Assembly (NCBI GenBank): GCA_041651455.1 | Contig: JBAZJG010000005.1 | Coordinates: 3,882-67,881, forward strand | Origin: Candidatus Omnitrophota bacterium | Lineage (GTDB): Bacteria; Omnitrophota; Gorgyraeia; Pluralincolimonadales; Pluralincolimonadaceae | DNA: 64,000 bases | Direction: 5' to 3' | Shown: positions 2,177-50,427 of the stretch, one piece after another | Layout: every line of letters begins with the position of its first letter | Numbering within the stretch: position 1 is the first letter of the stretch | Program-made: the position numbers and the translations under genes | The notes under the pieces: model-generated | Told to the model about the DNA's origin: nothing | Databases searched by the model: none | The model's input: the letters and a program-made list of their open reading frames with translations, nothing else

Positions 2177-2232
2177 TGTGATATATTTATATAGATAGAA
2201 ACGCATCTGACTGTCGGGTGGGGGAGTATTCT

Positions 2233-3432: not shown

Positions 3433-3436
3433 GAGG

Positions 3437-34454: not shown

Positions 34455-35668
34455 CGTTAGCCGCATTCGTCGCCGTTGCGGCGTTCCTGCCCGCGGAAGT
34501 CCTGGTCCGCGAAAGGGTCCTCAAGAAACCCGAGACGATCCAGAACATCGGCTTCACAAAAGGCACTACGGTGTATTTCGACGAATCCGGCAGGCTGCAA
34601 TTCGCGAGCCTCGGCGCCGACCAGCAGGTCGGGGGCATCAGGTTCGCTAAACGAACGTCCGTTTATTTCGACGGCTCCGGAAGGATCGATTATGTATACC
34701 TCGCCGCCGACCAGCAGGTGCTCGGGGTGGACGTAAGAAAGGGGACCTCGGTATATTTTACCAAGAACGGGAAGCTTGACTACATCATGGTCGCCGGTGA
34801 CGAAGAGATCGGCGGCCTTCTCTGTGCGAATGGCTCAAAGGCGGGTTTCTATGAGTCGGGAAAACTCCGGTATGCCACGCTCGGCAAGGACCAGCAGGTG
34901 CAGGGGATACCGTGCGCTAAGGGCTCAATAGCGGGTTTTTATGAATCGGGGAAACTGCGGCACGGGATATTATCAGATGACTCATGCGTGCAGGGCATAA
35001 TGTTCGCGAAAGGCACCTACCTTCTTTTTTATGAGACGGGCGGCATAAAGAGCGCATACCTCGTTGCGCCTACCGAAATAATGGGCATTACCTGCGCGAA
35101 CGGTCCGAGCGCGAGTTTTTATGAGAACGGTAAACTTGACTGGGCTGTCCTTGCGAACGTAAGCGAGGTCCAGGGGATATCATGCGCGAAGGGTTCGACG
35201 ATCGGGTTTTATAATACCGGAAAGCTCCAGTACGCTACGCTGTCTTACGAACAGGAAATCGACGGCATCGCATGCGCAAAAGGCGCGAAGGCCGGTTTTT
35301 ACCAGTCGGGTAAACTCCAGTTCACGACTCTTGCGGCAGACCAGCAGGTCTTCGGCATTCCTTGCGCAAAGGGCACGGTCGCCGGCCTGTATGAGAACGG
35401 CAAGCTGCAGTATGCGACCCTCAGCTCCGACAGGGAGATAAACAGCATACCCTGCGCGAAGGGAACGAAAGTTGATTTTTATGAGTCCGGAAGCCTGCAG
35501 AATGCTACGCTGTCCAAAGACCACAGGATAGGCAATATCGACTGTCCTAAAGGAGCAGTTGTCGGTATACGCGAATCCGGCACGCTTAAATACCTGATAT
35601 CCGAAGGGTCTAAGGCGAGTTTCGACGAGAACGGAAACCAGAGAGATATCGAAAAGACTGCAGATTGA
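34436..35668 (+). CDS. Exported tandem-repeat protein (12 x about 30 aa, MORN/YwqK-like beta-hairpin repeats)
   Basis: The TTG start lies 19 nt inside the cyclase gene, after an AAGGAAG RBS. The signal peptide is MRRTIIALAAFVAVAAFLPA. The repeat unit is G-I-x-C-A-K-G-x4-F-Y-E-S-G-K-L-x-Y-A-T-L-x3-Q-x-V. Confidence 0.75.
   Translation: MRRTIIALAAFVAVAAFLPAEVLVRERVLKKPETIQNIGFTKGTTVYFDESGRLQFASLGADQQVGGIRFAKRTSVYFDGSGRIDYVYLAADQQVLGVDVRKGTSVYFTKNGKLDYIMVAGDEEIGGLLCANGSKAGFYESGKLRYATLGKDQQVQGIPCAKGSIAGFYESGKLRHGILSDDSCVQGIMFAKGTYLLFYETGGIKSAYLVAPTEIMGITCANGPSASFYENGKLDWAVLANVSEVQGISCAKGSTIGFYNTGKLQYATLSYEQEIDGIACAKGAKAGFYQSGKLQFTTLAADQQVFGIPCAKGTVAGLYENGKLQYATLSSDREINSIPCAKGTKVDFYESGSLQNATLSKDHRIGNIDCPKGAVVGIRESGTLKYLISEGSKASFDENGNQRDIEKTAD
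34550..35629 (+). repeat. 12 diverged in-frame 90-nt tandem repeats within the CDS
   Basis: The protein-level period is 30 aa, for example GIPCAKGSIAGFYESGKLRHGILSDDSCVQ / GISCAKGSTIGFYNTGKLQYATLSYEQEID / GIPCAKGTVAGLYENGKLQYATLSSDREIN. The nucleotide copies are clearly diverged. Confidence 0.8.
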
Positions 35669-35705: not shown

Positions 35706-35734
35706 TTGACGACCTTCCGTACGCGTAATACAAT
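35706..35734 (+). promoter_or_regulatory. Sigma70-type promoter of the HTH / triple-TolC / GT48-like operon
   Basis: TTGACG (35706-35711), a 17-nt spacer, then TACAAT (35729-35734). A GGAGGAAGGAG RBS (35749-35759) precedes ATG 35767. Confidence 0.6.
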
Positions 35735-35766
35735 TATATACGAAATATGGAGGAAGGAGAGTCTAT

Positions 35767-35961
35767 ATGGACATAGGCGCGAAATACATAACTATGGAAG
35801 AGGTCGTGAATTACTTAAGCCTTAGCGAGGGCAGTATCCGTAAACTTATACGGGAACAGAGTTTCCCGCACGTAAAGGTGCTCAGGAAATATCTGTTCAA
35901 TAAGCAGGATGTCGACGCGTGGCTTAAGATGCATTCACAGGGCCTAAGGGCAAATAAGTAG
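35767..35961 (+). CDS. Small helix-turn-helix DNA-binding protein (excisionase/MerR-superfamily HTH_17 type)
   Basis: The 64-aa product ..ITMEEVVNYLSLSEGSIRKLIREQSFPHVKVLRKYLFNKQDVDAWL.. matches the 'helix-turn-helix, excisionase family' pattern. It is the first gene of the operon. Confidence 0.7.
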   Translation: MDIGAKYITMEEVVNYLSLSEGSIRKLIREQSFPHVKVLRKYLFNKQDVDAWLKMHSQGLRANK

Positions 35962-35985
35962 CATTACCTAACTATTAAAGGGGTC

Positions 35986-38900
35986 ATGCTAAGCCAAAAT
36001 TGTAAGAAATATATTATATCATTATCCATCGCGCTCGCGATGTCGTTTCCGTCGATGTCGTGCCCCGGGGAATTAGATTACAATAAGCTTTCGCTTGAAG
36101 CCGCGCTGAACAGGATGTATGAAGTAGACCCCGAAATACAGATAAGCAGACTCGCATGCGATGCGTCCCTCCTCGAGATAAAAGCAAGGAAACTCGATAC
36201 ATTCATGCCGAAGCTCAGCGTCGGCGTCAGTATAGTCAAGCCGGTCGATATCTTCACGAAACTTGACCAGCAAAAAGAGATGTTCTTTGAACAGCAGGTT
36301 ATCATAGAATTCGCCGTGACCTCAAACAGCTTCAACCATATCCTTAAGGACAGGAAAGGGTACGAAGCTAGCATGCTCGAATTGAAGCAGGCGGTTTCCG
36401 AAAGGAGCCGTGAGCTCATCACCGTATATTACGCCGTCGCAAGGGCCCAGGAGAATTACAGGTCCAGCTGCGATAACATCGAGACAGTCGAGAAGGTCCT
36501 GAAGATGGTCGAAAACAGCAATGAATATACGGACGTCGAAAAACTCGAGATAAGGAACTATCTTGCCGTGGTCACGGAAGAGAAGTTAGGCGCGCTGAAT
36601 ACGCTCATCAATACGAGAAGAGACCTCCGCGGGCTTCTCGGTCTGGAGAACAGGGAAGATATCGATATAACCGTCGAGGAACTGCCTGATAATATCAACA
36701 ATGACATCGCCTTCTATGAAAACCCGTTGATAAGGCCGGCGGATTACACCCTCGACATATATAAGAAAAGGGGTGAGGCTGCGGACGTGGCCTCCCGGAT
36801 CAGCGCGTCTCCCTTATTGAAATTTTCTTCCGCGACGATCCTCGGCATCGCCGAGGGCAGGTTCACGAAACTCCAGAAGAAAGTGATAACTGATACGGGA
36901 GTGGAGTTGCATATAACCGACTTTGGCTATACCGGAGGCCTCAATGATGTAAGCAAGATTAATTCGCAGATAGCGAGGTTGGAGGTATTGAAAGCAGAAG
37001 AGGACCTTGAGTATTCGGATTTAATAGCGAACGGCAAACTGGCCGAACTAAGCGGCCTAATAGATAATTACAGGGAATACATAACGAAGACGGAAGACAT
37101 GTTGAGGATGTTCAGGGAACGCCTCTCCTTGCCGGTCATCGAGATAATAAGGATGAACGATAATCTCTATAAGGCCAAGTATGCGATGCAACAGGCGCTC
37201 GTCGATTATACGGTCATGCTCTCGAACCTTAAAGGTGTCGAGCTGAAACCCGAACAGACCAGCCCTCAATACCAGGATATGAGCTTGGAAGACCTGCTTG
37301 CGAGGGGCGAGAGGAGTGACATCCTGACCGTCAAACAGATATCCGAGAAGAAGATGAGGATGGAAAACGTCAGGATCAACGCGACAAAGGCCGGATATTT
37401 CCCGAAGATCACCGGTGCGGCCATACTTGAGAACGCGAACATAGACGGCGTGCCGTCGCAGGCTACGAGGGCTTACGTTGCGCTTGAAGGGCAGCTCTTT
37501 AACTTCAAGAACGGGCAGGCCATCAGGGCAGCGAAGGCCAGCATGGAAGAAATCAGGTACGAGGGCGCCGCGCTGCAGAACGTGGTCGCGGATGAGATAA
37601 TAAAGAACTACCTGTTCATATTAAGGAGCAAGAATACCTTAAAATGGCTGAACGAGATCAAGGGGATAAAAGACGACATAATACGCGATATGCTGGAAAA
37701 TATGGAAGGCAAGGGCCCCAAATATAGTAATTCGGATATACTGCCGCTGGTCCTGCAGCAGATGGAGCTGGACAGGATGATGGCGGATGCCGAGTTCTCG
37801 CTGGCGGTCGTCGAGTATAGCCTCAAGAAATGGACCGGCATACCGCTCAACGAGACGATAAGCGTAAAGGAGCTCCCGGCGTTCGGGGAGGACGAAGGGC
37901 TCTCAGGGTTCATGGCGCTGATCCGGTCCAAGGTGGCGCCGTATTTCGACGGTAAGGCGCCGGTAAAACAAGCCCTGAGCGCCGTCGAAAAGAACAGGGC
38001 GGAAGAGGCGCGGGCCGTCGCGTATGATGGGGCGCTGCTCCAGGTAAAATGCGAGACGAAGGGCATGGAATATAAGGGATGGCATGATCCCGACAGGCAG
38101 GTGTCTTTCAGCGTCTCCGTGCCGTGGGGCGACCGCAGGGAAAAGATAGCCAGGTCTGAGGCGGCGAGGACCCGCATCAAGTCGGAGATCGAGTATTTGA
38201 AGAGCATGGATGCTTATGAAAAAGAGAGGTTATCCGTCAAGACCTCCTACGATTCATCGAAAGCGCTCCTTGAAGACCTGCGCAGCAAGAAGGAGAATAT
38301 GGAATCGCAGTACAGGATAACCGAGGAACTTTACCGGTTCGGCGGCCGGACAAAGAAGCAGATGGTTGATTCCAAGCTGGATTTCATAGTAGCGCAGATG
38401 AGCTATGAGGAAGCCGTCCTTGACAACTATTACCACAATGCGAGGGAGCTGCTGGTAGTGGAGAAAGATGCGGAACCCGAAGGCAGCGAAAGGATATTGC
38501 TGGCCGGATTGCAGGAAGCGATAGACCTTGCCATGCAGAACAGCCGCGAAATAAGGAAATACGAGGAGAGCCTCAAGCTCGAGAAGGAAACATTGGATTA
38601 TTACAAGACGGTGAGGATAAAGGGCGATATCGGAGGGGATTCCTATATAATAGATAACAAGGGCTGGAATGAGACAAAGAGGGTCAAGACCGCGGGGATC
38701 GTCGCGACCGCCGACATTGACCTCGTGAACAAATATATGGTGAAAGTCCAGCAGCGCAGGATCGAGCTTGCCGAAAAGGACCTCGAGCAGGCGAAGTTCG
38801 ACCTGACCCTGAAGGTCGCGGATGCCTACTCGGGCTACCTCGGTTCGCTCGCGGAGACCTCGGAAGTCCGCAAGGAATACGAGAGGCAGAAGACGGTCCT

Positions 38901-39795
38901 GGCGGAAATGGAAGAGCTTTTCAAGGCGAAAGCGATAGCGCATGTGGACCTGCTGAAGCAGAGGGAGTTCGTAGAGAGCCTTCTGCAGAAGTACATCGAC
39001 ACCAACAGGTATACCGAAGGGCACAGGAACAGCCTCGGCATTGCCGTCGGAGGCCTCGACCCGAGGTTTTCGGTCGTGAACACCGAGGTTTACGACAAGT
39101 CCGCCCGGCGCGTCGCGCTTACGGAAGATTTCGAGATCAAGCAGAGGCTGTTGGACGAGCTTACATCCGCGAGGCAGGCGCTCCAGGGACTGCTGCAGGA
39201 TGATCTGCTCAAGCGCGCGGAGATCAAACTCGACATGGCCAGGCTTGATACCCAAGCTATATCAAAACAGGTAAAGACGCTCGCGGTCAACCTCGAGTAC
39301 ATATACCTTACGGATTTCATGGGACTAATAATGAGGGATGAAGCCGCCTTCTCGCGTTATGACAACATGTCGGAGTTTTTCTCGCTGAACTCCATAGACC
39401 AGATATTCAATCCCGCCACCGGGACTAAGGCGAGGATTGCGGCGATAAGCGAGAAGGTCGCGGCATTAAGGTCGAAGTCATATACGAAAAACGTTGTCCA
39501 GGACGCGTTGAGGAGGTTTACCGATTACCAGGTGGCCGTGGCCGATTACGCCAACTACGAGAAGAACGAAACGGTGCTGGAAAACGAGATGGCCGAGAAG
39601 ATGCGTATGGAAGAGGCGGCAGGGAACACGGCCCTGATCAGGCAGAGGGAGCTAAAAGAGACGATACTTAACAACAAGATAAAGAAGATACAGGCATTCT
39701 ACAGGATGATGAAATTTATGAACGAACTGGACCGTTATCTGATAAGATATACTTCAAAAGGCATAGAATCATACGTAACATTCGTCACAAAATGA
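35986..39795 (+). CDS. Giant TolC-family outer-membrane factor with about six OEP-type repeats (three TolC-protomer equivalents in one polypeptide)
   Basis: The 1269-aa product has an N-terminal signal-like segment (..LSIALAMSFPSMSC). TolC-style module starts occur at aa ~35 (LSLEAALNRMYEVDPEIQ), aa 432 (MSLEDLLARGERSDILTVKQ) and aa 838 (LLAGLQEAIDLAMQNSREIR). Each is followed by long heptad-rich helical hairpins and short Gly/aromatic beta segments. Confidence 0.65.
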   Translation: MLSQNCKKYIISLSIALAMSFPSMSCPGELDYNKLSLEAALNRMYEVDPEIQISRLACDASLLEIKARKLDTFMPKLSVGVSIVKPVDIFTKLDQQKEMFFEQQVIIEFAVTSNSFNHILKDRKGYEASMLELKQAVSERSRELITVYYAVARAQENYRSSCDNIETVEKVLKMVENSNEYTDVEKLEIRNYLAVVTEEKLGALNTLINTRRDLRGLLGLENREDIDITVEELPDNINNDIAFYENPLIRPADYTLDIYKKRGEAADVASRISASPLLKFSSATILGIAEGRFTKLQKKVITDTGVELHITDFGYTGGLNDVSKINSQIARLEVLKAEEDLEYSDLIANGKLAELSGLIDNYREYITKTEDMLRMFRERLSLPVIEIIRMNDNLYKAKYAMQQALVDYTVMLSNLKGVELKPEQTSPQYQDMSLEDLLARGERSDILTVKQISEKKMRMENVRINATKAGYFPKITGAAILENANIDGVPSQATRAYVALEGQLFNFKNGQAIRAAKASMEEIRYEGAALQNVVADEIIKNYLFILRSKNTLKWLNEIKGIKDDIIRDMLENMEGKGPKYSNSDILPLVLQQMELDRMMADAEFSLAVVEYSLKKWTGIPLNETISVKELPAFGEDEGLSGFMALIRSKVAPYFDGKAPVKQALSAVEKNRAEEARAVAYDGALLQVKCETKGMEYKGWHDPDRQVSFSVSVPWGDRREKIARSEAARTRIKSEIEYLKSMDAYEKERLSVKTSYDSSKALLEDLRSKKENMESQYRITEELYRFGGRTKKQMVDSKLDFIVAQMSYEEAVLDNYYHNARELLVVEKDAEPEGSERILLAGLQEAIDLAMQNSREIRKYEESLKLEKETLDYYKTVRIKGDIGGDSYIIDNKGWNETKRVKTAGIVATADIDLVNKYMVKVQQRRIELAEKDLEQAKFDLTLKVADAYSGYLGSLAETSEVRKEYERQKTVLAEMEELFKAKAIAHVDLLKQREFVESLLQKYIDTNRYTEGHRNSLGIAVGGLDPRFSVVNTEVYDKSARRVALTEDFEIKQRLLDELTSARQALQGLLQDDLLKRAEIKLDMARLDTQAISKQVKTLAVNLEYIYLTDFMGLIMRDEAAFSRYDNMSEFFSLNSIDQIFNPATGTKARIAAISEKVAALRSKSYTKNVVQDALRRFTDYQVAVADYANYEKNETVLENEMAEKMRMEEAAGNTALIRQRELKETILNNKIKKIQAFYRMMKFMNELDRYLIRYTSKGIESYVTFVTK

Positions 39796-42700
39796 GCGGG
39801 AATATGTCAAAGAGCGGCAAAAAAATAGCCATAGTGCTGGTAGCGGTCGCGGCCATCTTCATCACGGCGCGCTCGTGTATGCACCGTTCCGCGGATGTAC
39901 GGGACGCGGCCGGCACACAGCAACCGATCGCAGCCGGTGCCGCGCGTACAGATAACCCGCTCGACCATGCGCGGCAGCGCGATTCGGCTTTAAATGCCGG
40001 AGAATTGATATCCTTCATATTGGAATGGACCAACCCGGAGACCGGGCTGGTGCCTACAATCATATCAAAGAGCGGGCAAAAGAACCCTTTTGCCGACCTG
40101 TCTTATACGTACGCGCAGGCGGTTGCGCACCAGAACCTCATAATTGCGGGATCAAACGACAGGTCGCAGGCCGCCGCGGAGATATTCAGGCAGAGGGGAG
40201 AGACGAGGGATATACCTAACTGCTTCAACGTCCGGACCGGGTTTAGCGAGGACCCTTTGGTAACTGCCGGGCCAAACGCGTACTGGGGCATAAGTTTCAT
40301 AAGGGAATACAAGGCAACCGGCGACGAAAAGTGGCTTACGGCAGCAAAGAGGCGCGCAGATTTCCTGCTAAAACTGCAGACGGATGACGGCGGGATAAGA
40401 AAGAACCCCTTCCAGGGCAACGCGGAATATAAAGCCAAGTCGACAGAGGAGAACCTCGATTGCTATGCGCTGTTCGTGATGCTTTCCGATATCACAAAGG
40501 AGAATAAGTATGCGGTTGCCGCGTCCGATGTGCTCAAATGGCTTGCGGAAAGCGGTGTATATGACATAGAAGCGGGTTATTTTATCGCAGGCACATCGGA
40601 TGATCAGATGAACCCGTTGTATGCAACAGACGCGAACGCGCTCGCTATCATAATACTCGGCCCTGAGCTGCTCGATTCAGAAGGCAAGGTCCGGTTCGGC
40701 GGGGCCGGCACAAGCCGCAGGATCCTGGACAGCCTTGATGCGGCCAAGGTCAAAGTAGATTATCTCCATCCGTCCGGCGTCACGATAAAAGACCTAGAAG
40801 GATTCGATTTTACCGACAAATTCGGCAGGCCAGGCAGGAAACCAGTCCTGAGCCCCGAGTTCACTTCCCAGGCGGTGCTGGCATATCTGGTAATGGCAAG
40901 GCACGCGAAAGAGAAAGGAGATGCCGAGTATTCGGCCAAGCTGATCGAAGACGCGCGGCGTTATCTCGATAACCTAGGGAGGATGGCAGCGCGCACAGGG
41001 AAGTCGGCGTCACTGCCTTATGCCTCGGAGAAAGGGATTAGGCGTTATCCGTTCGACAACTGGCTGACGCCGCAGGGAGATGCGGATATATCGGCGACAT
41101 GGGCGTCATTCCCATTATCGGGATTCAATCCGTTCGCGCTTGAAGGGTTAGGGCTGCGTGATGCGCTGAAGGACTCCGCGGAATGGATGTCCGATACGGG
41201 TGAGGTCATAAAGCCCGAAAAAGCTTTCGTTATCCCCGAACCGGAGAAGATCATATCCGAAGCAGAGCTCATTGCCCAGCAGGAAGCGGCAAGGGAAGAG
41301 GCGATGAGGAAGCCGATCGTGTATTATAAGGTCCTTTACGACCAGGTCAATAAGGATGCGACTATTGCGAGAAGGAGAGTGATAGCCGTCCTGATGACAA
41401 GCTACAATTGCTGGTTCGACGGCGTGCTGGATACGGCGTCGCGGGACTATGACGTGATCGGCGTTGACGGGAATTATAAGGTTTTCTACAAAAGATTCCA
41501 GGACCTTCCGGAAGCGACAAGGAAAGCCGTGCAATCGGAATATGCCTATTTTGACGAGCCAACCGGCATAAAATGGAGGATGGCCCCGAAATACAATTTG
41601 TATCTAGACGGGCAGTATAAGCCGTATTATGCCTTCGAGATAGACGGCGATTACAACATAATCAGGCAGTTTGCGTCCGAGAGCGACATCCCTGAAGAGA
41701 ACAGGGCCGATCTCAAGAGCGCAAAAGCCCAATTCCAGTCCTCCCGCGGCCTTCCCGAGGGCCATCTTATAGCAAGGTATTTCACCGCGCTCGAAGTGGA
41801 CGACGAGATGAATATAACGAACTATTACGAAGCGATAGATGACCTTCCCGGCCTTGTCTCTAAAGTCCCGATAAGCGAGGATGAGTTCAGGAGGTATATA
41901 AAGGCGAAGGACTGGGAGAGGCTGGACCTGGTCTCTGCTGGCATCATACCTGATGAAAAAGGGATGCTTGCCGTACAGGAGAGAGGTATGTATTACGCAA
42001 GGGTCCTCGGCCTCGATGAGACGAGGAGGCTGCGTGTCGGTGGTGTCTCCGTAGCCAGCGGACGCGAGATAATCATGGGAACGAGGTTCAGTCTTACTAA
42101 CTGGCGCATAGGAGAGGCATCGAAAACTAACGCCGTCAAATACGAGATCGGGCTCATAAAAGGCATGGTCATAAAGCCGCGTGAACAGTTTACCGGAAGC
42201 GGCCCTTCACCGACGCAGCCGCTTTGGATATACCTCGGGGAAGATATGATCGCGTCCGAGACCGCGGAATTCAAGAGAAGGCTCATGAGCTTGTTGAAGC
42301 GCATCAAATCAGAGAAGGATGCGCAGACACGCCTCGAGCTCGTGGAACAATACGACCGGTTGGCCGGAGAGCTCGCCTGGTACGACGAGAACGGGTTCAT
42401 ACATGTTATCTATTATGGTGTAAAAGCTGCCGAAAAGAGGTTCGGGGATTTTGCGTCGGCAAAGGCAAGAGCGGAGAACAGCCTGAGGACCTACGAATCG
42501 ATCCTGGGTAAGGACCAACTCGGGCGGGACCTGCGCGATTCATACGGCCGCGTATGGCTAAAGGTCATAAACGAGGCGACCGGACGCATATTATACGTCG
42601 AGGTCTATGATATGGCGGGAAATCTCGAGACGATATATTCCGGGAAAATCGATATCGACCCGCTAACTAAGGAGGTCAGGTCCGAAATAAGGACCGATCT

Positions 42701-45700
42701 CGAGTACGACAAGGAGACCCTGCAGGTAGTCGGCAGCCACACATACCGCACGGACGAGAACGGGGATTGGGTGTCCGATATATCCGAGAGCATATTCAAA
42801 GGGTATACGCCCGACAAGAAGTATTTCGTTTCGGAGGTGCATATATTCGATAGGGACGAGGACGGCAGGATAATATTCGAGGACGGGAAAGCCAGGTATA
42901 CAAAGAAGATAGAATATTACACGCCTGAAGGCGATATATCGGCCCAGATGGTGAAGAATATAATTACTATAGTCAAGTACGGCGCCAACCATGAGGTCGT
43001 GAAAGAGGTATTTCTCGAGCGGCCCGGAAAGGTCCTGACAGGGGAGAACACGAACCTCGATAACCTGACGCAGGGCCTTGCGTGGGTCCGCAGGTACAAG
43101 ACGACAGGCAAGATCTTGACTTTCAAGGATTCGCTCGTGAAGTCCCTGACATCGCTGCCGGAAGAAGAAAGGGAAACGGCCGCGCTGCTGATATTGAACA
43201 GGCTCGGCGCGGAGAAGGTGGGCAGGATCAGCGATATCCTTATGCTGGAAGAGAACGAGGTCACGAACAACCTGACCGGCGACCCTGCCGCGGCCGGGGA
43301 GGCGCCCTATTTTGTGTTCTATGAACCGGGCGACAGTTTAGGCCGGCAAAGGCTCATAGTGCGCGGCGGTACGATGGAGGTCCCCGTTGACTGGATAGCC
43401 GAGGCCGATATACCTTCGAAGACGCTCACCTTCAACCTTGCCGGTGAATTGGTCTCGATAAGCGATGTCGACAGCTCTGTCCGCGCGGATTCCGTACTGC
43501 CTCCCGGATATATAGAAAGGATGGCGCCGCTCGGTATCAACGCCGATACGCTGCTGCCCCAGATGAAGAAGAGGATATTCAGGATGGTGACCGGCGAGGA
43601 CGGCCTGCCGCATTTCACGAATACGGTGGCCATAACGACGGTCAGCTACATGATACCCGACGACGTTCTCGGCAGGGAGCTCTTGAATGTCAAGTTTGTC
43701 ATGCTCGGGGACGAGACGACGCTCCACAGCGGCAGCGCGCTGAAGCTCAAGCGAAATATATTCGGCAGGGACACGCTTATCGAGTCGTGGAAGGACGAAA
43801 GGGGCGAGGCCCGCACCCGTGCTATAGCCAAGAAAGAGGATACCGTAGTATATGAATGGTATAAGGAAGGCCTCGGCACCGGCGAGCTGCGAGAGCGCCT
43901 GAAGTCCGAATGCGGCAAGATCGTGAAACGCAAGATACTGGAAGAGGCGCTTGAGAACGTCGCGGAGGCGCCGTTCGGCACAATGCCCGGCTATCACGTC
44001 ATAAAGCCGAACGGGCGTATAGGCGAGATCAAATATTTCTCCGGCACAGTCGAATATCCGCGCAGCGTCTTCAGTCATCCCGGGGTAAAGGTGCCTTATG
44101 AGACGGAAGCGCCGCCGTTCAAGCTTCCGGACGGTCCCCTGATAAGGGGAGTGAAATACGGCGTGTTGAATTCCGATTACGCGTTCTATGACGTGCATTC
44201 GCTCAGCGGCCAGCTGATAGTCCTCGAACGCCGTTTCATAATCCTGCGCCTCATGAACATACTGCCGGTGCAGGGCGGCAGGCAGACTGAATATTATGAC
44301 CCGCTCGTCCCGTATTCATACCTGAGGCCGATAAAGATAGAAAGGGATTTCAGGCCCGGCACACAACCCGAGGGCACGCAGCCGGGCACCCAGATCGTTG
44401 CGGTCTTTATCGGCGATGCGAGCATCTACCACCGTAACGGATGGCAGACCCAGACTTTCCTCGAGAGGAGGCCGTTCGATATAGAGCACTGGATACGCTC
44501 TGATTACGAGTTCGACGATAACGGCGTATATAAGTTCAAGAAAGAGCATATCGAAAGCAGTTCGATATACCTGATGAGGTCTATAAAATGGCAGAAGCCG
44601 CTAGCTTTCTTCGCGTTTGTGGCAGGCCTCTTCTTCCTGGCCGGGTATGTCTCGCGCAGCAGGCTTAAGGCAGGTAAGAGGTCCAGGATGGCTGTCGCGC
44701 GTGCGGCATCGCGGCCGTTCAGCAGGGAAGTGCTTGCGCGGCTCTCGGTACCTGAAGAGCTGAAAGCCGCCTGTATAAGGGTTTATGAAGGACATGAGCC
44801 GGTATCGGAACTCTTCGCCGCATCCGAAAAGGTCTTCAGGCCCAGGATCGAGGAATGCCTTCGCGGTTTCGGGGCCGACCCTGCCGGACATACGGCAAGC
44901 GTAAATGTCCTGCTGGACAGGATCGCGTGCCGGATCGGAAGGGAGGATATAAATTTAAGCAACCTGTTCGCAGTTGAAGCGAAAGAGTTCGGGGAATGGT
45001 CTAAGAAGAACGGGCATTCCGTCAACATTGCCGCAGGCAGGCCCGGCAGGGACGACCTGTCGGTGATAGTCCTCTTCAGGCTGGTATTCGACGAATCGAT
45101 GGAATTCAGGGCCGCCGTCACCGGGTTCAGGAATTACCTGCTCGATAAGTCGCTCGGGCTCCTTGACGAAGGCAGGAAAGGCGATATATTGCGCGAGATA
45201 CGCGGCGATACTCTCGCTTTCCTCGAGGCCTTAAGGCCTGGTTATGACAGGAAGCTCGGGCTCACTAAGGAATATATATTCACGTATGATGACATGAGCG
45301 AGCTCTTTGAAGGAAAGAGGCCAGGTTTCATCGCCTCATTCTCCCAGCTGGCAGGAAAGACCGCCGAGCAAAAACTCTCCTGGCTCGCGTCAAGGGCGGG
45401 CAAGGATGCCGCCGCGGACGTGAAGTCATACAAGAGCTACATATGGCTCAAGACGTTCCCTGATAAGGCCGGCGTTCCGCAGTTCGTCTGGAACCTTAGG
45501 CGCTTCTGGGAATTTCTCGTGCCGATGTTCGCGGCAGTGACTCTGGGCGGCGTAGCGATAGCCCTGAAACGGATACCGTTCGCCCAACGCCTCTCCGGTG
45601 CGATGGGCCCGATAGGAGCCACCTTTGTCGAGGTAACGGCCCTGATATTTATCGGCCTCATCATAACTATGGCCTTCAAGAGGCGGACACTCGGCGATTA

Positions 45701-48700
45701 CAGGCCCGCGCTGAGGGATGCGGCCGGGAGCAAGGAGCTCAGGCGCTCGATCAGGCTGTTCTGGATAATGTTCGGCTCGGCTTCTTATCTCTGGGGCCTC
45801 TTCAGCATATTCGTGATAATCTGGACCGTCAGGATCATAAGCAAACTCACGTTCGTGAGCGCCGGATGGGGCCTGTTCATCAACGTGAGCGCGCTGCTGC
45901 TCACCTTCACGTTCATACTGTCGAGCTTCTTCTCGCTCTTTTATATCATAATAGCGTTGATAGGGTTTTACCGCGGCAAGAGGGAAGGCATCGGCCAGGT
46001 CATATCATGGGCCCAGATGAGGAGGAAGTTCGAGGCATCCAGGCGGTGCTTCGGGCAGATCATCACTCCGTCCGAAGCGTTTTGGAAATCATATTGGAAT
46101 TCCATGATAACGGAACTCTACGATTATTATGTCATCAGTGCCGCGGAGAGGGATGGGCTGGTTTATTCGGAAAAGAACGCGGTGCCGAAGCTATCCTCAC
46201 AGCCGCGTGCCGAAGAGGCCTCCGAAAGGATGCGCCTGTACGTAAACAGCTGGCTTATGGAGATGCCGAAGGCATGCTCCTGGAACGACCTGCCGACCTT
46301 CACGGCAATGGTAACGGCTTTCAATGAGCCGGTAAGCTTCTCGTTCGACGAGCTGAACGGCTGCGACAGGGGGGCCGAGGTCACGAGGCTTAACCACCTG
46401 ATCGGGTTCTATAGGCCGCAGTGGGAAGAATTTGTCGGCAGGCTAAATTCCGCCGACCTCGGGCATTATATCACGAGGGAACAGCTAAAGCTGCTCTTCG
46501 GCCTGAAGAAGCTGCCCGAAGGGCTCCCTGAACAACTGAAGGAAAAGATCAGGAAGTGGGCAAACCTGACGGTCCAGTGCGTCGAGAAGACGGCCGTGGA
46601 GGTATACAGGATACGCGACGCTTTCGCGGCATACGCACGGGCCTGCTATCCCGGAATCTCCGAGAAGGCGGTATCGGAGATGGTCTCTGATAAGGTCCAG
46701 ATACTGCTGAATTACGAGGGCTACCACAGCGCCGCGACCCGCGATTCCGACAAGGAGGCCCTGAGGAGGATCATGAAGGAGCTCCCGTTCCTTGACGTAT
46801 ACTGGGCGGCGCCGGAAGGCGACGAGAAGGGAACGGACCGCGGGCTCCACCGCTATAACCCGTCGACAGACAGCATAGAGCTTATAGAGACCGCGCCGTT
46901 CACCTCCACGGTCAAGAAAGGCAAGCCGAGCGGGCTGAACCAGGCGCTGCCGTTCGTGAAGGGCGAGACGGTCCTTTTCTTCGACGCGAACTGCTCGGTC
47001 AGGATAGAGGACGCCCTGAAACTGCCCGTCGCGCTTTCCGAGTTCGCGGACGACCCGTCGCTCGGCGAAGTCCTGTTCGCGGAATACATATTCAACAAGA
47101 ACTACTCCTGGATCTCCCAGGCGATAGGTTTCAACGAGGAGACCTTCGTTTCGGTGACCCAGAGGACGCTTAACATCTTCCAGGCCTGCGGTTTCTACGG
47201 CCACAGCGCGATAATAAAGACAGACATGATAACCGCGGCCTGCGGCCTGCCGCAGGATTACATATCGGAGGACATACTCCTTGCCACGGCATTATGGAAA
47301 AAGGGCCTGAGGACCTCGCACAAAGAATACCTGACCTTCGGGAAGGGCAGGGAGACCTCGTATTTCACGAGCCTCGTGCCGCTGACGAAGTGGGCGATGG
47401 GTTCTTCCGACGCCGCGATAGGCCGCGTCATGCGCGGCATACTCGATTCGAGGAATGTCCATGTCGCGCAGAAGTTCATGCTGATGTTCGGGTTCTCGTT
47501 CTTCTACCAGACCCCGCTGATGTTCGTGATAAACTTCCTTTACCTGTGGCTGATGATCTGCTGGGGCATAAACGGTTTCATGGCGGTCCCGTACCCGATA
47601 GTCTTCGGTATCCTCGGCCTGCTCTTCAACCAGGCGATAACCGCTACCGGCGTCGCGTACCTCGTGGAACATTACGGTTTCAGGAAGTCCTTCTCCGCAT
47701 ACATGAAGCTTGTCGCGAAGAACCATTTCTTTTACGCGTCGGTCATACCCGCGTACGCGTTCGGTTTCCTCGCAGGCCTGAAGGGAAAGGCAGTCTTTAT
47801 CATAAGCCCGAAGGGATGGAACCTGGGCCACCTGCCCCTCAAGACGATATGGGGGGAGAAGAGGGCCATACTGAAGGCGGCGCTCTTCAGCACCATGGTA
47901 GGCCTTCCGCTCGCATACCTGTTCGTGTCGACCGAGACGGTCCCGTTATGGATAAGCCCGTTCATACCGTTCCTGCCGTTCGCCGTAGTTGCGGCTATGT
48001 ACTTGGCCGGCCTCAGGTGGAAAGAGACGGGATTGGGTTTCCTGAAGGATTGGCGCGACGAGATAGTCCCCGACGGCGACATCCGCAAGATGTCCGTCAT
48101 AAAGCTGCAGATGATATACGCGATGGTCTTGCTTGTCTTCACGGGAGTCGGCTTCGTCATGTGGGGCCTTATATTCTCATCCCTGGCGGTCAAGGCGCTG
48201 TTCATATTCTCGGTCCTTTACATAAGCACGACGCTGTCGTTCATAATAATGCCGCTCTTTGCGCATTCGCAGCCGGTCGCGCTGTTCAAGGAGATAACGA
48301 TATCCAAGTTCTGGAATTACGCGGTGATACCGATGCTGCTGGCGAGCATTGTTCTCGGCGCGGTCTCTATAATGTCGAGCCCCGCGACGGCATCGCCCGA
48401 ATCCGTCGTCTATACGCTTCTCGGCATATCGATGCTTGTCGGATGGGCGCTGCTTAAGTGGAAGCTCAGCGGGTATGCGAGGCTTGACAGGTGGCTCAGG
48501 CAGAACCTGGCCGGATACGCATCCTCTTCGCCGGTACGCAAAGCCGACCTCATGGATGACATATACTTCGCTCACCAGGAGTTGATCCAGAGCGACAGGC
48601 AGGAGGAGCTTAAATACAGCAGGAAGGCCGGGAAGGCCAAAGCCGTGTTCGTGTTCACGCTGTCGGCCGCGTTGCTGATGTATTTCACGTCGGAATTCTA

Positions 48701-49019
48701 CCCGAGGTTCTTCAGCAACTGGATATGGATCGTTATCGCGATCGAGGCGGTCTACCTGCTGATATTGAACGTCGAGCATACTAAGGGCGACAGGATATAC
48801 CTGGGCAAGTTATTCAGCGAAATAATGATTAATGATTTCAACAGGCTCAATGAGAATGTCAGGGCCATGGAAGACATCTGGAAGAAACTGGACAGGATAT
48901 ACAAGGCCAAGCTTATCAGGACCTATGAGGACGAAGTCAGGGCCAAGAGGGCGATGACCGTTTACATGTCCAGGTGCATAAGGTCGTGGGAGGCGGGACA
49001 GCAGCAGAAGCCTACTTAG
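39792..49019 (+). CDS. 3075-aa envelope-spanning protein. Order: N-terminal TM anchor, ~1570-aa periplasmic region (alpha/alpha-toroid-like plus beta-rich), TM, cytoplasmic linker, TM cluster, FKS1/callose-synthase-like (GT48-like) glucan synthase core, ~10-TM C-terminal cluster
   Basis: ATGA overlap with the TolC-like gene, then one uninterrupted ORF. The GT48-type blocks are EEASERMRLYVNSW..MP..LPTFTAMV, YRPQWEEFV, IRKWANLTVQ, GKPSGLNQALPFVKGETVLFFDAN, EDALKLPVALSEF, AEYIF, FYGHSA, SEDILLA and EYLTFGKGRE. Hydrophobic clusters lie at 45.5-46.0 kb and 47.5-48.8 kb. Confidence 0.75.
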   Translation: MSGNMSKSGKKIAIVLVAVAAIFITARSCMHRSADVRDAAGTQQPIAAGAARTDNPLDHARQRDSALNAGELISFILEWTNPETGLVPTIISKSGQKNPFADLSYTYAQAVAHQNLIIAGSNDRSQAAAEIFRQRGETRDIPNCFNVRTGFSEDPLVTAGPNAYWGISFIREYKATGDEKWLTAAKRRADFLLKLQTDDGGIRKNPFQGNAEYKAKSTEENLDCYALFVMLSDITKENKYAVAASDVLKWLAESGVYDIEAGYFIAGTSDDQMNPLYATDANALAIIILGPELLDSEGKVRFGGAGTSRRILDSLDAAKVKVDYLHPSGVTIKDLEGFDFTDKFGRPGRKPVLSPEFTSQAVLAYLVMARHAKEKGDAEYSAKLIEDARRYLDNLGRMAARTGKSASLPYASEKGIRRYPFDNWLTPQGDADISATWASFPLSGFNPFALEGLGLRDALKDSAEWMSDTGEVIKPEKAFVIPEPEKIISEAELIAQQEAAREEAMRKPIVYYKVLYDQVNKDATIARRRVIAVLMTSYNCWFDGVLDTASRDYDVIGVDGNYKVFYKRFQDLPEATRKAVQSEYAYFDEPTGIKWRMAPKYNLYLDGQYKPYYAFEIDGDYNIIRQFASESDIPEENRADLKSAKAQFQSSRGLPEGHLIARYFTALEVDDEMNITNYYEAIDDLPGLVSKVPISEDEFRRYIKAKDWERLDLVSAGIIPDEKGMLAVQERGMYYARVLGLDETRRLRVGGVSVASGREIIMGTRFSLTNWRIGEASKTNAVKYEIGLIKGMVIKPREQFTGSGPSPTQPLWIYLGEDMIASETAEFKRRLMSLLKRIKSEKDAQTRLELVEQYDRLAGELAWYDENGFIHVIYYGVKAAEKRFGDFASAKARAENSLRTYESILGKDQLGRDLRDSYGRVWLKVINEATGRILYVEVYDMAGNLETIYSGKIDIDPLTKEVRSEIRTDLEYDKETLQVVGSHTYRTDENGDWVSDISESIFKGYTPDKKYFVSEVHIFDRDEDGRIIFEDGKARYTKKIEYYTPEGDISAQMVKNIITIVKYGANHEVVKEVFLERPGKVLTGENTNLDNLTQGLAWVRRYKTTGKILTFKDSLVKSLTSLPEEERETAALLILNRLGAEKVGRISDILMLEENEVTNNLTGDPAAAGEAPYFVFYEPGDSLGRQRLIVRGGTMEVPVDWIAEADIPSKTLTFNLAGELVSISDVDSSVRADSVLPPGYIERMAPLGINADTLLPQMKKRIFRMVTGEDGLPHFTNTVAITTVSYMIPDDVLGRELLNVKFVMLGDETTLHSGSALKLKRNIFGRDTLIESWKDERGEARTRAIAKKEDTVVYEWYKEGLGTGELRERLKSECGKIVKRKILEEALENVAEAPFGTMPGYHVIKPNGRIGEIKYFSGTVEYPRSVFSHPGVKVPYETEAPPFKLPDGPLIRGVKYGVLNSDYAFYDVHSLSGQLIVLERRFIILRLMNILPVQGGRQTEYYDPLVPYSYLRPIKIERDFRPGTQPEGTQPGTQIVAVFIGDASIYHRNGWQTQTFLERRPFDIEHWIRSDYEFDDNGVYKFKKEHIESSSIYLMRSIKWQKPLAFFAFVAGLFFLAGYVSRSRLKAGKRSRMAVARAASRPFSREVLARLSVPEELKAACIRVYEGHEPVSELFAASEKVFRPRIEECLRGFGADPAGHTASVNVLLDRIACRIGREDINLSNLFAVEAKEFGEWSKKNGHSVNIAAGRPGRDDLSVIVLFRLVFDESMEFRAAVTGFRNYLLDKSLGLLDEGRKGDILREIRGDTLAFLEALRPGYDRKLGLTKEYIFTYDDMSELFEGKRPGFIASFSQLAGKTAEQKLSWLASRAGKDAAADVKSYKSYIWLKTFPDKAGVPQFVWNLRRFWEFLVPMFAAVTLGGVAIALKRIPFAQRLSGAMGPIGATFVEVTALIFIGLIITMAFKRRTLGDYRPALRDAAGSKELRRSIRLFWIMFGSASYLWGLFSIFVIIWTVRIISKLTFVSAGWGLFINVSALLLTFTFILSSFFSLFYIIIALIGFYRGKREGIGQVISWAQMRRKFEASRRCFGQIITPSEAFWKSYWNSMITELYDYYVISAAERDGLVYSEKNAVPKLSSQPRAEEASERMRLYVNSWLMEMPKACSWNDLPTFTAMVTAFNEPVSFSFDELNGCDRGAEVTRLNHLIGFYRPQWEEFVGRLNSADLGHYITREQLKLLFGLKKLPEGLPEQLKEKIRKWANLTVQCVEKTAVEVYRIRDAFAAYARACYPGISEKAVSEMVSDKVQILLNYEGYHSAATRDSDKEALRRIMKELPFLDVYWAAPEGDEKGTDRGLHRYNPSTDSIELIETAPFTSTVKKGKPSGLNQALPFVKGETVLFFDANCSVRIEDALKLPVALSEFADDPSLGEVLFAEYIFNKNYSWISQAIGFNEETFVSVTQRTLNIFQACGFYGHSAIIKTDMITAACGLPQDYISEDILLATALWKKGLRTSHKEYLTFGKGRETSYFTSLVPLTKWAMGSSDAAIGRVMRGILDSRNVHVAQKFMLMFGFSFFYQTPLMFVINFLYLWLMICWGINGFMAVPYPIVFGILGLLFNQAITATGVAYLVEHYGFRKSFSAYMKLVAKNHFFYASVIPAYAFGFLAGLKGKAVFIISPKGWNLGHLPLKTIWGEKRAILKAALFSTMVGLPLAYLFVSTETVPLWISPFIPFLPFAVVAAMYLAGLRWKETGLGFLKDWRDEIVPDGDIRKMSVIKLQMIYAMVLLVFTGVGFVMWGLIFSSLAVKALFIFSVLYISTTLSFIIMPLFAHSQPVALFKEITISKFWNYAVIPMLLASIVLGAVSIMSSPATASPESVVYTLLGISMLVGWALLKWKLSGYARLDRWLRQNLAGYASSSPVRKADLMDDIYFAHQELIQSDRQEELKYSRKAGKAKAVFVFTLSAALLMYFTSEFYPRFFSNWIWIVIAIEAVYLLILNVEHTKGDRIYLGKLFSEIMINDFNRLNENVRAMEDIWKKLDRIYKAKLIRTYEDEVRAKRAMTVYMSRCIRSWEAGQQQKPT

Positions 49020-50391
49020 TATTGTAGCTTTCTTTCAAAACCTCGTGGTAGTAGAGCCAATCGTCGCTAACCTTCTTCATCGCGCTGTAGAGGTTCCTGT
49101 AATCGTCGTAGATATCGCATTCGAACTCGATATTACGCCTTCCGCTCAGGAAATGCGCGAAGAGCTTGTAGTTCATCTCCTTGCGCAGGAAGTTCTTCTT
49201 CTTGAGGGCATAGAAGAGCGATCCGCTGCCTTCGAAGCAGTTCATTATCCTTACCCATTCGCAGGCGATGAATATGCAGTTCTTGTAGCTTCCGAACAGG
49301 TCGACCGTGTCGCAGTCGATGAATACGCATGATTCGAGCTTGCTCGACGGTTTTATCTTCTTGCTCCTGACGAAATAGTTGCCGTTCTCGTCCGGTTTGG
49401 ATATCTGCGCGGTCAGCTTGCGCAGCAATTCGAGATATGTCATTATGTTTGACGCCCAGTCGATCCAGTAGCCCCTGGCGATGGCGCCGCCGACGCTTAT
49501 CTCGTATTGCTGAAGGCATTCCCTCATTGCGAGCTGTATCTTCGATAGCGCCTTCTTCTCCAGGACGAGCGACTCGCAGACCAGCTTGTTGAAGCTCCAT
49601 TCGGTCGCGTTCAGGTGCGCGATGAAGTCCTTGTTCTTCTCCTTGGAGCAGAAGAGGTCGACCGCGTTCTGCAGCTTATCCAGGCTGTCTTTTGTGGTGA
49701 ATAGCTGGAACGTATTCGCGAGCGTCATACCCTTTGTATATTTAGGTATCAATTTTTCGTCGAAGGTCTTTTCGTAAAAAGAGGATATGCCGTTATTAGA
49801 GTCGAGCTTAGCCGTGCCGAGGCTCCCGAGGGCCCTGTTTATCTGTATCGGGGTCAGCAGCATGGAAGCCGTATGCGAGTTAAGCGATCTCAGCAGGCCG
49901 TTTATGTCCACATCGGCGTAATCGAAACACTGGTCGATCGGAAGTATGATAACCGTGTTCTTCAAAAGCGGGATGCTCTTGGCGATGCACGGAAGAAGCA
50001 TGTCCGGCGCCCGGCCTTCGGGGAACCTTATGCTCGCCTTTGACGGCGTGCCGAATTCATAAGAGAGGGGGAATATCCTCGTGGCGAGGCCGGCGTCATG
50101 GATATATACAATAGTATCGAAGGAATCAAGCTTCTTCTTGGAAAGGAGCCTCTTTATACGCTCGTGGGTCTTGAGGTAACCGGTAAGGTTACCGCGGGTC
50201 TGGCCCATCTCGGCCATCCCGACAAGCTCGACGTCTATCGTCTTGTTATACCGCTCCCTGAGCTTCTTCTTGAAGAGCTGTTTGAGGTCGAGAGAGAACT
50301 CAAGCTTATCATAAGAGTTCAGTACGAGCAGTACCCTGTCCGCGACCTCATTTTTTACTTTTAGGTTCTCCAGTACGGTAGTCTTAGCCAT
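49012..50391 (-). CDS. Hypothetical cytoplasmic protein; weak motif-level resemblance to nucleotide-sugar pyrophosphorylase-type folds
   Basis: The 459-aa ORF has clean coding character, is Lys/Asn/Phe-rich and has no TM segment. The motif VYIHDAGLATRIFPLSYEFGTPSKASIRFP loosely recalls the G-x-x-(S/T)-R-x-x-P-(L)-(S/T)...K loop of NDP-sugar pyrophosphorylases and fucokinase-N-type domains. Its 3' end overlaps the giant gene by 8 bp. Confidence 0.6.
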   Translation of the reverse strand: MAKTTVLENLKVKNEVADRVLLVLNSYDKLEFSLDLKQLFKKKLRERYNKTIDVELVGMAEMGQTRGNLTGYLKTHERIKRLLSKKKLDSFDTIVYIHDAGLATRIFPLSYEFGTPSKASIRFPEGRAPDMLLPCIAKSIPLLKNTVIILPIDQCFDYADVDINGLLRSLNSHTASMLLTPIQINRALGSLGTAKLDSNNGISSFYEKTFDEKLIPKYTKGMTLANTFQLFTTKDSLDKLQNAVDLFCSKEKNKDFIAHLNATEWSFNKLVCESLVLEKKALSKIQLAMRECLQQYEISVGGAIARGYWIDWASNIMTYLELLRKLTAQISKPDENGNYFVRSKKIKPSSKLESCVFIDCDTVDLFGSYKNCIFIACEWVRIMNCFEGSGSLFYALKKKNFLRKEMNYKLFAHFLSGRRNIEFECDIYDDYRNLYSAMKKVSDDWLYYHEVLKESYNTK

Positions 50392-50398
50392 TTACGAA

Positions 50399-50427
50399 AA
50401 TATACCCTTTTTTATTAAAAAAGTCAA
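50399..50427 (-). promoter_or_regulatory. Promoter of the 459-aa gene; predicts a leaderless mRNA
   Basis: On the minus strand: TTGACT (50427-50422), a 17-nt spacer, then TATATT (50404-50399). Only 7 nt (TTCGTAA) separate it from ATG (50391-50389), and there is no SD. Confidence 0.55.

Follow-up and report, generated by a model that had tools for sequence, protein, structure and literature searches.

Can a glucan synthase of the type known from fungi and plants, joined to a very large periplasmic module and encoded beside a TolC-like protein of threefold length, make a polysaccharide and carry it across a bacterial envelope? This question is raised by a locus in a 64,000-nucleotide stretch of contig JBAZJG010000005.1 from a Candidatus Omnitrophota bacterium, hereafter the window (positions count from its first letter). 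The locus encodes a 64-residue helix-turn-helix (HTH) protein, a 1269-residue protein with matches to the Pfam family OEP, a 3075-residue giant protein with a synthase core and, in convergent orientation, a 459-residue protein. An earlier note, made from the sequence alone, had read these genes as a trans-envelope machine for polysaccharide synthesis and export. Our analysis supports this reading at the two points where computation could have spoken against it: the genes are conserved together in relatives, and the large loop of the giant protein is predicted to lie in the periplasm. The product would be a glucan and the way out a TolC-type duct. We conclude that the locus probably encodes an envelope-spanning, synthase-dependent apparatus for glucan synthesis and export with four core parts.

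The GT48-type synthase and its periplasmic module

Judged from its sequence, the giant protein is a GT48-type synthase. The Pfam family Glucan_synthase (PF02364) matches residues 2139-2587 with 86.1 bits (cut-off 37.2, E 2.4e-24), and the same profile is matched by all twelve full-length homologues in our comparison (42-100% identity), at best with E 1.6e-30. The only sequence matches of its synthase core in the PDB are yeast FKS1 and GSC2, at an identity of only about 25%. Mapping the FKS1 active-site residues (PMC10499315), a set whose importance is supported by mutagenesis, through this alignment, we find 11 of 14 conserved: E851 corresponds to E2179, K1082 to K2378, D1102 and N1104 to D2398 and N2400, E1155 to E2431, E1173 to E2449, H1195 to H2471, E1221 and D1222 to E2493 and D2494, and K1246 and R1248 to K2518 and R2520. 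The other three positions are changed (D1080 to K, K1172 to N, and N1220 to S). The claim of a GT48-like glycosyltransferase (GT) core is thereby upheld. The accompanying statement that GT48 is not homologous to GT2 is not, as FKS1 has a cellulose-synthase fold (PMC10499315) and the giant protein itself scores 26.7 bits with the GT2 profile Glyco_trans_2_3, just below the cut-off of 27.

The architecture of the core also resembles that of FKS1 and the plant callose synthases. Hydropathy places a hydrophilic GT region of 500 residues (2062-2561) between clusters of transmembrane (TM) helices at residues 1905-2061 and 2562-2996, just as the GT-A domain of the eukaryotic enzymes lies between TM bundles, and from the positive-inside rule we infer that this domain faces the cytoplasm. 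A cytoplasmic accessory domain precedes the TM and GT core in both cases; here it comprises 282 residues and may be a regulatory or nucleotide-receptor region. The protein differs from FKS1 and callose synthase in being bacterial, in having no Rho1-type regulator, in two additional N-terminal TM helices around the giant periplasmic module, and in its presumed coupling to an outer-membrane duct. The product is most likely a beta-glucan, possibly beta-1,3-linked, with an uncertain sugar donor, given that the predicted pyrophosphorylase of the locus resembles ADP-glucose rather than UDP-glucose enzymes.

The two additional helices, TM1 and TM2, bracket a hydrophilic loop of 1569 residues (33-1601). 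Because a very basic stretch follows TM2, this loop is predicted to be periplasmic, in line with the periplasmic region of about 1570 residues between two TM segments that had been proposed. Its N-terminal part matches Pfam GH76 at residues 162-271 (38.3 bits, cut-off 25.9, E 1.5e-9), a match that covers only profile positions 89-206 of 366 and recurs in 12 of 12 homologues. PDB alpha-1,6-mannanases match the same toroid at E 2e-5. The remainder (residues 451-1601) has no Pfam, NCBIfam or PDB-profile match; its conservation, including that of the hairpin-rich part, equals that of the GT domain.

The Auribacterota-like locus L017 illustrates how this module relates to the synthase. There, a 1661-residue protein corresponds to residues 10-1633 of the window protein (43% identity), and a separate 1447-residue GT48 synthase corresponds to residues 1680-3055 (44%), the N-terminus of the latter being the counterpart of the cytoplasmic accessory domain. 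Because the giant gene is split in L017 exactly after TM2, the periplasmic module appears to be a separable, membrane-anchored partner of the synthase, which backs the idea that a BcsB-like periplasmic partner has been fused to the enzyme.

The GT48-type module has many relatives. An exhaustive HMMER search with the GT and TM module returned 392 clusters, 195 of them at E < 1e-10, and the named top matches are almost all "hypothetical proteins" of Omnitrophota, many of them fragments of giants of up to 7886 residues; for one relative from Omnitrophota the score with the GT48 profile reaches 323 bits. The first eukaryote in the ranking is a Cyanophora GT48 at E 2.5e-40. These matches in giant proteins suggest that GT48-type modules are a recurring building block in Omnitrophota. 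In the literature we found nothing that joins Omnitrophota with a glucan synthase, and the published work on Omnitrophota giant genes does not mention GT48 or TolC. GT48-like modules inside giants of 5601-7886 residues (P0040, P0047, P0074, P0093 and others) have different partners. One 6932-residue giant with such a module (L018:10001-30799) is preceded by a small LysM gene, and a few genes downstream lies a 1048-residue fusion resembling pyruvate kinase and fucose pyrophosphorylase. A partial GT48-like sequence of 961 residues (P0039, 42% identical) is binned with Candidatus Njordarchaeales (Asgard archaea) on a 2.9-kb contig. It may be mis-binned or a real archaeal copy, and it matters for the question of how eukaryotic GT48 originated.

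The TolC-like and pyrophosphorylase-like proteins

The 1269-residue protein was divided into thirds (about residues 30-432, 433-838 and 839-1269), and each was scanned separately. All three pass the Pfam OEP cut-off of 22 bits independently, with 48.2, 35.2 and 35.7 bits, in agreement with its earlier description as a triple TolC. OEP repeats are found at residues 37-219, 305-416, 451-558, 697-812 and 842-1001, five of the six expected, with a spacing of about 200 residues. Segments of alternating hydrophobicity, a noisy signal, occur at about residues 109, 304, 499, 710 and 908. The last third has weak PDB matches to CmeC, VceC, TolC, OprN and OprJ. Full-length homologues of 1271-1350 residues are encoded beside the synthase, and all have a signal-peptide-like N-terminus. 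The protein is best read as three strongly diverged equivalents of a TolC protomer in one chain. It shares OEP repeats and a signal peptide with TolC, OprM and CusC and is exactly as long as three of their protomers; however, the known outer-membrane factors are homotrimers of protomers of about 450 residues that together form one 12-stranded barrel and tunnel, whereas here a single fused chain has diverged thirds. We found no description of a single-chain TolC in the literature.

The convergent gene had been assigned a possible fold related to nucleoside-diphosphate (NDP) sugar enzymes, and structure prediction makes this assignment more specific. The AlphaFold2 model of the 459-residue protein has a mean predicted local distance difference test (pLDDT) score of 89.6, obtained with an alignment of 20 sequences, and the top Foldseek matches over about 450 columns are ADP-glucose pyrophosphorylases (E 6e-10) and a GDP-mannose pyrophosphorylase, all with E about 1e-9. 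In sequence the resemblance is much fainter: the profile match to GlgC is weak (E 0.002), the protein has no Pfam match and stays below the NTP_transferase threshold, and one homologue alone matches NTP_transferase weakly. The family has the invariant motifs HDAGxATRxFPL, D153 and E207-K208, which we take to be the glycine-rich loop, the catalytic Asp and the sugar-phosphate Lys of NDP-sugar pyrophosphorylases, so that equivalents of this Asp and Lys appear to be conserved. The protein models confidently as ADP-glucose-pyrophosphorylase-like, with a nucleotidyltransferase domain and a left-handed beta-helix as in GlgC. It differs from GlgC in its identity of about 12% and in a glycine-rich loop that reads DAGxATR rather than GGxGTR. 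Its gene is the best conserved of the module, with 51-53% identity where the synthase has 43-49%.

Members of this family also occur elsewhere. A homologue with 43% identity lies within a conventional-looking exopolysaccharide locus (L016:3360-12716) together with a UDP-glucose dehydrogenase, an alginate lyase, a 492-residue OEP protein, a protein like the membrane fusion proteins (MFP) and a GT2 (Glyco_tranf_2_3) synthase; because of this locus, the family is also tied to ordinary systems of GT2 synthase, adaptor and TolC. A paralogue with 35% identity, from the metagenome-assembled genome (MAG) that also contains L010, directly follows a gene for a 2809-residue protein (L015:1416-11290), and the family may thus partner with other large proteins. 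The 2809-residue protein was considered as a relative of the synthase and rejected; it has no similarity to the synthase and no Pfam match.

Gene order in relatives and the surrounding genes

The genome contigs were scanned with peptide patterns from the periplasmic region, a search that reaches near relatives within Omnitrophota but not the GT48-like family at large. The OEP gene is located directly upstream of the synthase gene wherever the available sequence extends far enough in that direction (L001, L004, L006, L008, L010-L013 and L017). Close relatives, with a synthase identity of 74-90%, have the whole order of GGDEF, MORN, HTH, OEP, synthase and convergent 459-residue gene. L010 (55%) keeps GGDEF, MORN, OEP and synthase, without the HTH gene and without an adjacent 459-residue gene. 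In L001 (43%) the module is in another chromosomal context (ATP synthase, phosphoglucomutase), with a full-length OEP gene (28% identity) directly upstream of the synthase, the GGDEF (44%) and MORN (35%) genes relocated directly downstream of it, and the 459-residue homologue (51%) upstream. In L014 (49%) the synthase is followed by GGDEF, a MORN-like gene, the 459-residue homologue and then a convergent phosphoglucomutase/phosphomannomutase gene. The GGDEF gene thus adjoins the synthase in L001 and L014 on the side opposite to that in the window, and a mutase gene of this kind, which may serve sugar supply, lies beside the module in both.

In L017 the order is an OEP gene (1321 residues, 27% identity over the full length), the gene for the periplasmic protein, the synthase, a small gene and a convergent 459-residue homologue (52%). 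Because these four remain in L017, we regard the OEP protein, the periplasmic module, the GT48 synthase and the pyrophosphorylase as the core. The HTH gene is outside it, and the GGDEF and MORN genes appear to be Omnitrophota accessories. Of the HTH, TolC and GT48 trio whose synteny the earlier note had proposed to check, the TolC-synthase pair is kept across rearrangements, but the HTH gene is confined to the close clade. It occurs in relatives of at least 74% identity (L004-L013 apart from L010), was not detected by tblastn in L001, L010 or L014, and has no counterpart among the gene calls that separate OEP and synthase in L017. No HlyD- or MFP-type adaptor gene was found at the window locus or at L001, L004, L014 or L017. 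Downstream of the split module, L017:17357-23372 encodes a GH35/GH42-type beta-galactosidase, a GntR/LacI-type regulator and a GH94 glycan phosphorylase, which may be a context for beta-glucan or oligosaccharide recycling, or a coincidence.

Coordinates, promoter, gene spacing and overlaps given by the earlier note were all found in the sequence (Table 1). Across seven genomes the -35 and -10 elements and the Shine-Dalgarno sequence are invariant, with divergence in the 5' portion of the spacer; because of this phylogenetic footprint we regard TTGACG-17-TACAAT as a real promoter. In the close clade, the HTH, OEP and synthase genes would form an operon driven by this one conserved promoter. The OEP gene begins 24 nucleotides after the HTH gene and overlaps the synthase gene in an ATGA (39792-39795). 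The NCBI model of the identical protein (P0001, 3071 residues) begins at the second Met, four codons later (39804). The overlap appears to be retained in the closest relatives (79-88% identity, tblastn coordinates) but is not conserved beyond them: gene calls of more distant relatives have gaps of 8-47 nucleotides. It is therefore the tight linkage of the two genes that is conserved, the ATGA overlap itself not being universal. The synthase and 459-residue genes overlap convergently by 8 nucleotides (49012-49019), as they also do in L004.

Table 1. Features of the locus, with positions in the window (aa, residues of the encoded protein)
Feature	Position	Strand	Evidence
Predicted sensor diguanylate cyclase: 2 TM, periplasmic dCache, HAMP, GGDEF	32877-34454	+	Pfam, NCBIfam, TM prediction
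Putative 410-aa secreted MORN-variant protein	34436-35668	+	Pfam MORN_2, signal-peptide-like N-terminus
Sigma-70-type promoter, TTGACG-17-TACAAT, 5' of HTH gene	35706-35734	+	
64-aa HTH gene	35767-35961	+	ORF (open reading frame) list
1269-aa OEP/TolC-like gene	35986-39795	+	ORF list
3075-aa synthase gene	39792-49019	+	ORF list
TM1 (aa 12-30), predicted N-in signal anchor	39825-39881	+	hydropathy
GH76-like (alpha/alpha)6 toroid (aa 33-450), predicted periplasmic	39888-41141	+	Pfam GH76, PDB matches
Orphan region (aa 451-1601), predicted periplasmic	41142-44594	+	helical segments, then beta-hairpin-rich part (aa ~900-1590)
TM2 (aa 1602-1622), then basic cytoplasmic stretch; gene split here in L017	44595-44657	+	hydropathy, L017 comparison
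Predicted cytoplasmic accessory domain (aa 1623-1904)	44658-45503	+	hydropathy; no family match
GT48-type core: TM helices (aa 1905-2061), GT-A domain (aa 2062-2561), ~10 TM helices (aa 2562-2996)	45504-48779	+	Pfam, FKS1 alignment, hydropathy
459-aa pyrophosphorylase-like gene, convergent to synthase gene	49012-50391	-	ORF list
Promoter-like site, TTGACT-17-TATATT, 5' of 459-aa gene	50399-50427	-	consensus match alone

The GGDEF gene is situated two genes upstream of the HTH gene, and its cyclase assignment is borne out by the Pfam order dCache-HAMP-GGDEF. The window, L004 and L006 share the active-site motif GGEEL (34161-34175, residues 429-442), where L001, L010 and L014 have GGEEF or GGDEF; the RxxD I-site (RESD in the window) is kept in all six. 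The attachment of this cyclase to the module in Omnitrophota suggests that the module is under cyclic di-GMP (c-di-GMP) control. The MORN-variant protein has about 12 repeats of about 30 residues, most with a conserved CAKG motif that includes a cysteine. Its gene overlaps the 3' end of the GGDEF gene by 19 nucleotides, and in L001 (35% identity), L010 and L014 a homologue likewise comes after the GGDEF gene. The 64-residue protein belongs to the HTH_17/excisionase-family DNA-binding proteins (Pfam, NCBIfam). In L001 and L014 a PilZ-domain protein of about 440 residues, a candidate c-di-GMP receptor, is encoded a few genes from the module. It belongs to a block shared by L001:22214-26686 and L014:11670-16197 that also contains phosphoglucomutase/phosphomannomutase, Formyl_trans_N and TP_methylase genes.

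The OEP and 459-residue genes had looked AT-rich by eye. Their total GC contents (0.514 and 0.508) are indeed about two standard deviations below those of the flanking genes (0.562 +/- 0.024), but at third codon positions they match the flanks (0.70 and 0.74 versus 0.72 +/- 0.06), so the difference reflects amino-acid composition rather than foreign codons. The flanks consist of housekeeping genes (secDF, recJ, recG, fatty-acid synthesis, electron transfer flavoprotein (ETF), cvpA, nif3, dnaG, rpoD), and in several genomes the locus lies between ETF/acyl-CoA dehydrogenase genes and cvpA-nif3-dnaG-rpoD. We had considered a foreign origin of the locus and rejected it in view of this setting and the third-position composition. 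Further away, four successive ORFs at 33-6553 (+; 383, 336, 404 and 1038 residues) have no Pfam match at E <= 1e-5, and their third-position GC of 0.63-0.66 is somewhat below that of the rest of the window.

A proposed export route and its alternatives

How might these parts work together? In the mechanism that we propose, the GlgC-like enzyme would provide an NDP-hexose donor, and the GT48-type core would polymerise it at the cytoplasmic face and, like FKS1 and BcsA, pass the growing polymer through a TM channel of its own. The periplasmic module between TM1 and TM2, with its toroid and hairpin-rich region, would receive, guide or trim the chain and stand in for a separate BcsB or an HlyD-type adaptor. 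The exit through the outer membrane would be a TolC-type duct made of three diverged protomers fused in the 1269-residue chain, and in Omnitrophota the periplasm-sensing diguanylate cyclase would add c-di-GMP control, acting through a presumed receptor. A monomeric synthase facing a threefold duct would normally need a symmetric adaptor ring; fused, diverged protomers may instead permit an asymmetric fit at a ratio of 1:1.

The nearest described systems are c-di-GMP-controlled GT2 synthases with an HlyD adaptor and TolC. In Sinorhizobium meliloti, BgsA (GT2), BgsB (HlyD) and TolC make a c-di-GMP-activated mixed-linkage beta-glucan (PMC13438883), and the cyanobacterial tripartite cellulose secretion system is, in the account given there with reference to Maeda et al. 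2018, analogous. As far as that account goes, both systems share with our locus an inner-membrane processive glucan synthase that works with a TolC-type factor instead of a BcsC-, PgaA- or AlgE-type porin, and a diguanylate cyclase or c-di-GMP signal, which here is a genomic association. They differ in their synthase, which is GT2 there and GT48-type here; in their separate HlyD adaptor, in place of which we find the periplasmic module of the synthase or, in L017, a bitopic partner; and in their TolC, a shared housekeeping homotrimer there and a dedicated, operon-encoded single chain here. A dedicated GlgC-like enzyme is also part of the module here. The "unusual composition" claimed for the locus therefore holds for the GT48 core, for the adaptor replaced by the giant periplasmic module of the synthase and for the dedicated single-chain TolC, features that appear new relative to the known systems; it does not hold for the TolC exit of a synthase-made glucan, which has precedents (PMC13438883). 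In this respect the locus would be a variation on synthase-dependent, TolC-coupled glucan secretion. We found no publication that describes this system.

Compared with the bacterial cellulose system (BcsA, BcsB, BcsZ, BcsC), the likeness is in the logic of the design, which combines a synthase that has a channel of its own with a periplasmic partner anchored in the membrane, a domain resembling glycoside hydrolases (GH), an outer-membrane exit and c-di-GMP input. Homology is another matter, as no locus gene has a PilZ, BcsB, tetratricopeptide repeat (TPR) or BcsC-type profile match, and neither BcsC (TPR and 16-stranded barrel) nor GH8 has a counterpart here. Moreover, the periplasmic partner precedes the synthase in the chain and is held in the membrane by two anchors. 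Fusions of synthase and partner also occur among Bcs systems, as in AcsAB of Komagataeibacter.

Several observations weigh against the proposed apparatus. The sixth OEP repeat was not detected by the segment-wise Pfam scan; PDB searches gave no match for the whole OEP protein and no outer-membrane factor for its first two thirds; and self-BLAST, phmmer and profile-profile comparison (hhalign) of thirds and sixths found no significant internal triplication. Because the thirds show no significant similarity to each other, the triple-TolC reading rests on the Pfam OEP matches of the individual segments. The GH76 catalytic Asp pair is not evident in the toroid: the alignment to the alpha-1,6-mannanases starts just C-terminal of where we take the Asp-Asp motif to be, and the giant protein has an invariant GPNA there. 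With no catalytic Asp-Asp aligned, the glycoside-hydrolase-like toroid described earlier is at most a putative hydrolase. The AlphaFold2 model of residues 450-1601, dominated by long beta-hairpins, has a pLDDT of 64.5 with the other four models below 50, so its fold is of low confidence. With regard to regulation, the window cyclase carries GGEEL in place of GGEEF, L017 lacks both the GGDEF and the MORN gene, and Pfam finds no PilZ or other known c-di-GMP-binding domain in the synthase or its homologues. The organism is known from MAGs alone. To our knowledge, passage of polysaccharide through a TolC-type lumen has been inferred genetically and not seen in a structure, even in known systems.

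A bolder version of the proposal is tentative, and we think it rather doubtful: the fused, asymmetric TolC would dock 1:1 and without an adaptor on an Rhs-type cocoon chamber of the GT48 synthase, forming a continuous conduit for a beta-1,3-type glucan, and the Omnitrophota GT48 modules would be prokaryotic kin of the FKS and callose synthases. The chamber is a lead and not a finding. The nine best PDB matches of the low-confidence model in Foldseek are all Rhs, teneurin or Tc-toxin YD shells, with a TM-score of about 0.1, and a YD-like DxxG motif occurs four times in the periplasmic region where 0.28 are expected. A LolA-like fold match of the region is likewise a hint.

Among other explanations, the one that survives best, unlikely though we consider it, is that the glucan stays in the envelope as a periplasmic or wall-associated layer, built or remodelled by the periplasmic module, with the TolC-like protein as an anchor or tether or as the exporter of something else. 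The great size and strong conservation of this module and its GH-like toroid would fit in-situ processing, and what links the polymer to the duct is indirect. However, the OEP gene directly precedes the synthase in all lineages, even where the giant gene is split, and known TolC-dependent glucan synthases stop producing without TolC (PMC13438883).

Very unlikely, in our view, is that the giant protein belongs to the attachment or attack repertoire of Omnitrophota, with a GT48 part that modifies glycans on a surface or on prey and a TolC-like protein that serves type-1-like secretion of another substrate. The giant proteins of this phylum have been linked to predation (10.1101/2023.11.21.568195), and GT48-like modules are present in many of them with different partners. 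Yet this protein is predicted to be a polytopic enzyme of the inner membrane, its synthase core is intact and a sugar-nucleotide enzyme appears dedicated to it, no ATP-binding cassette (ABC) or MFP components of type-1 secretion are encoded nearby, the same module exists outside Omnitrophota (L017), and the locus lies among housekeeping genes. Least probable is a non-processive GT48-like enzyme acting on a lipid or protein acceptor, such as an envelope glycolipid, with the duct exporting the glycoconjugate: TolC homologues do export glycolipids in cyanobacteria (HgdD/DevBCA) and three active-site positions differ from FKS1, but this protein retains the residues to which work on FKS1 assigns elongation and the binding of donor and acceptor, and behind its GT domain it also has the multi-helix TM region that forms the channel in FKS1.

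If the locus is an apparatus for glucan synthesis and export, its interest extends beyond Omnitrophota. The literature that we searched treats GT48, which includes the fungal FKS target of the echinocandins and plant callose synthase, as eukaryotic; a bacterial GT48 with an intact active site in a compact, conserved module would be a prokaryotic point of comparison for how FKS and callose synthases work and how they arose. The natural split in L017 supplies ready construct boundaries, which makes the proposal testable even though the organisms are uncultivated. A fused TolC with three diverged parts would test the limits of asymmetry in such ducts and would reveal a way for a monomeric machine to engage a threefold channel without hexameric adaptors, a current question for TolC-dependent glucan systems. 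If the bolder version were true, the GT48 modules of the Omnitrophota giants would also bear on the source of a eukaryotic cell-wall enzyme.

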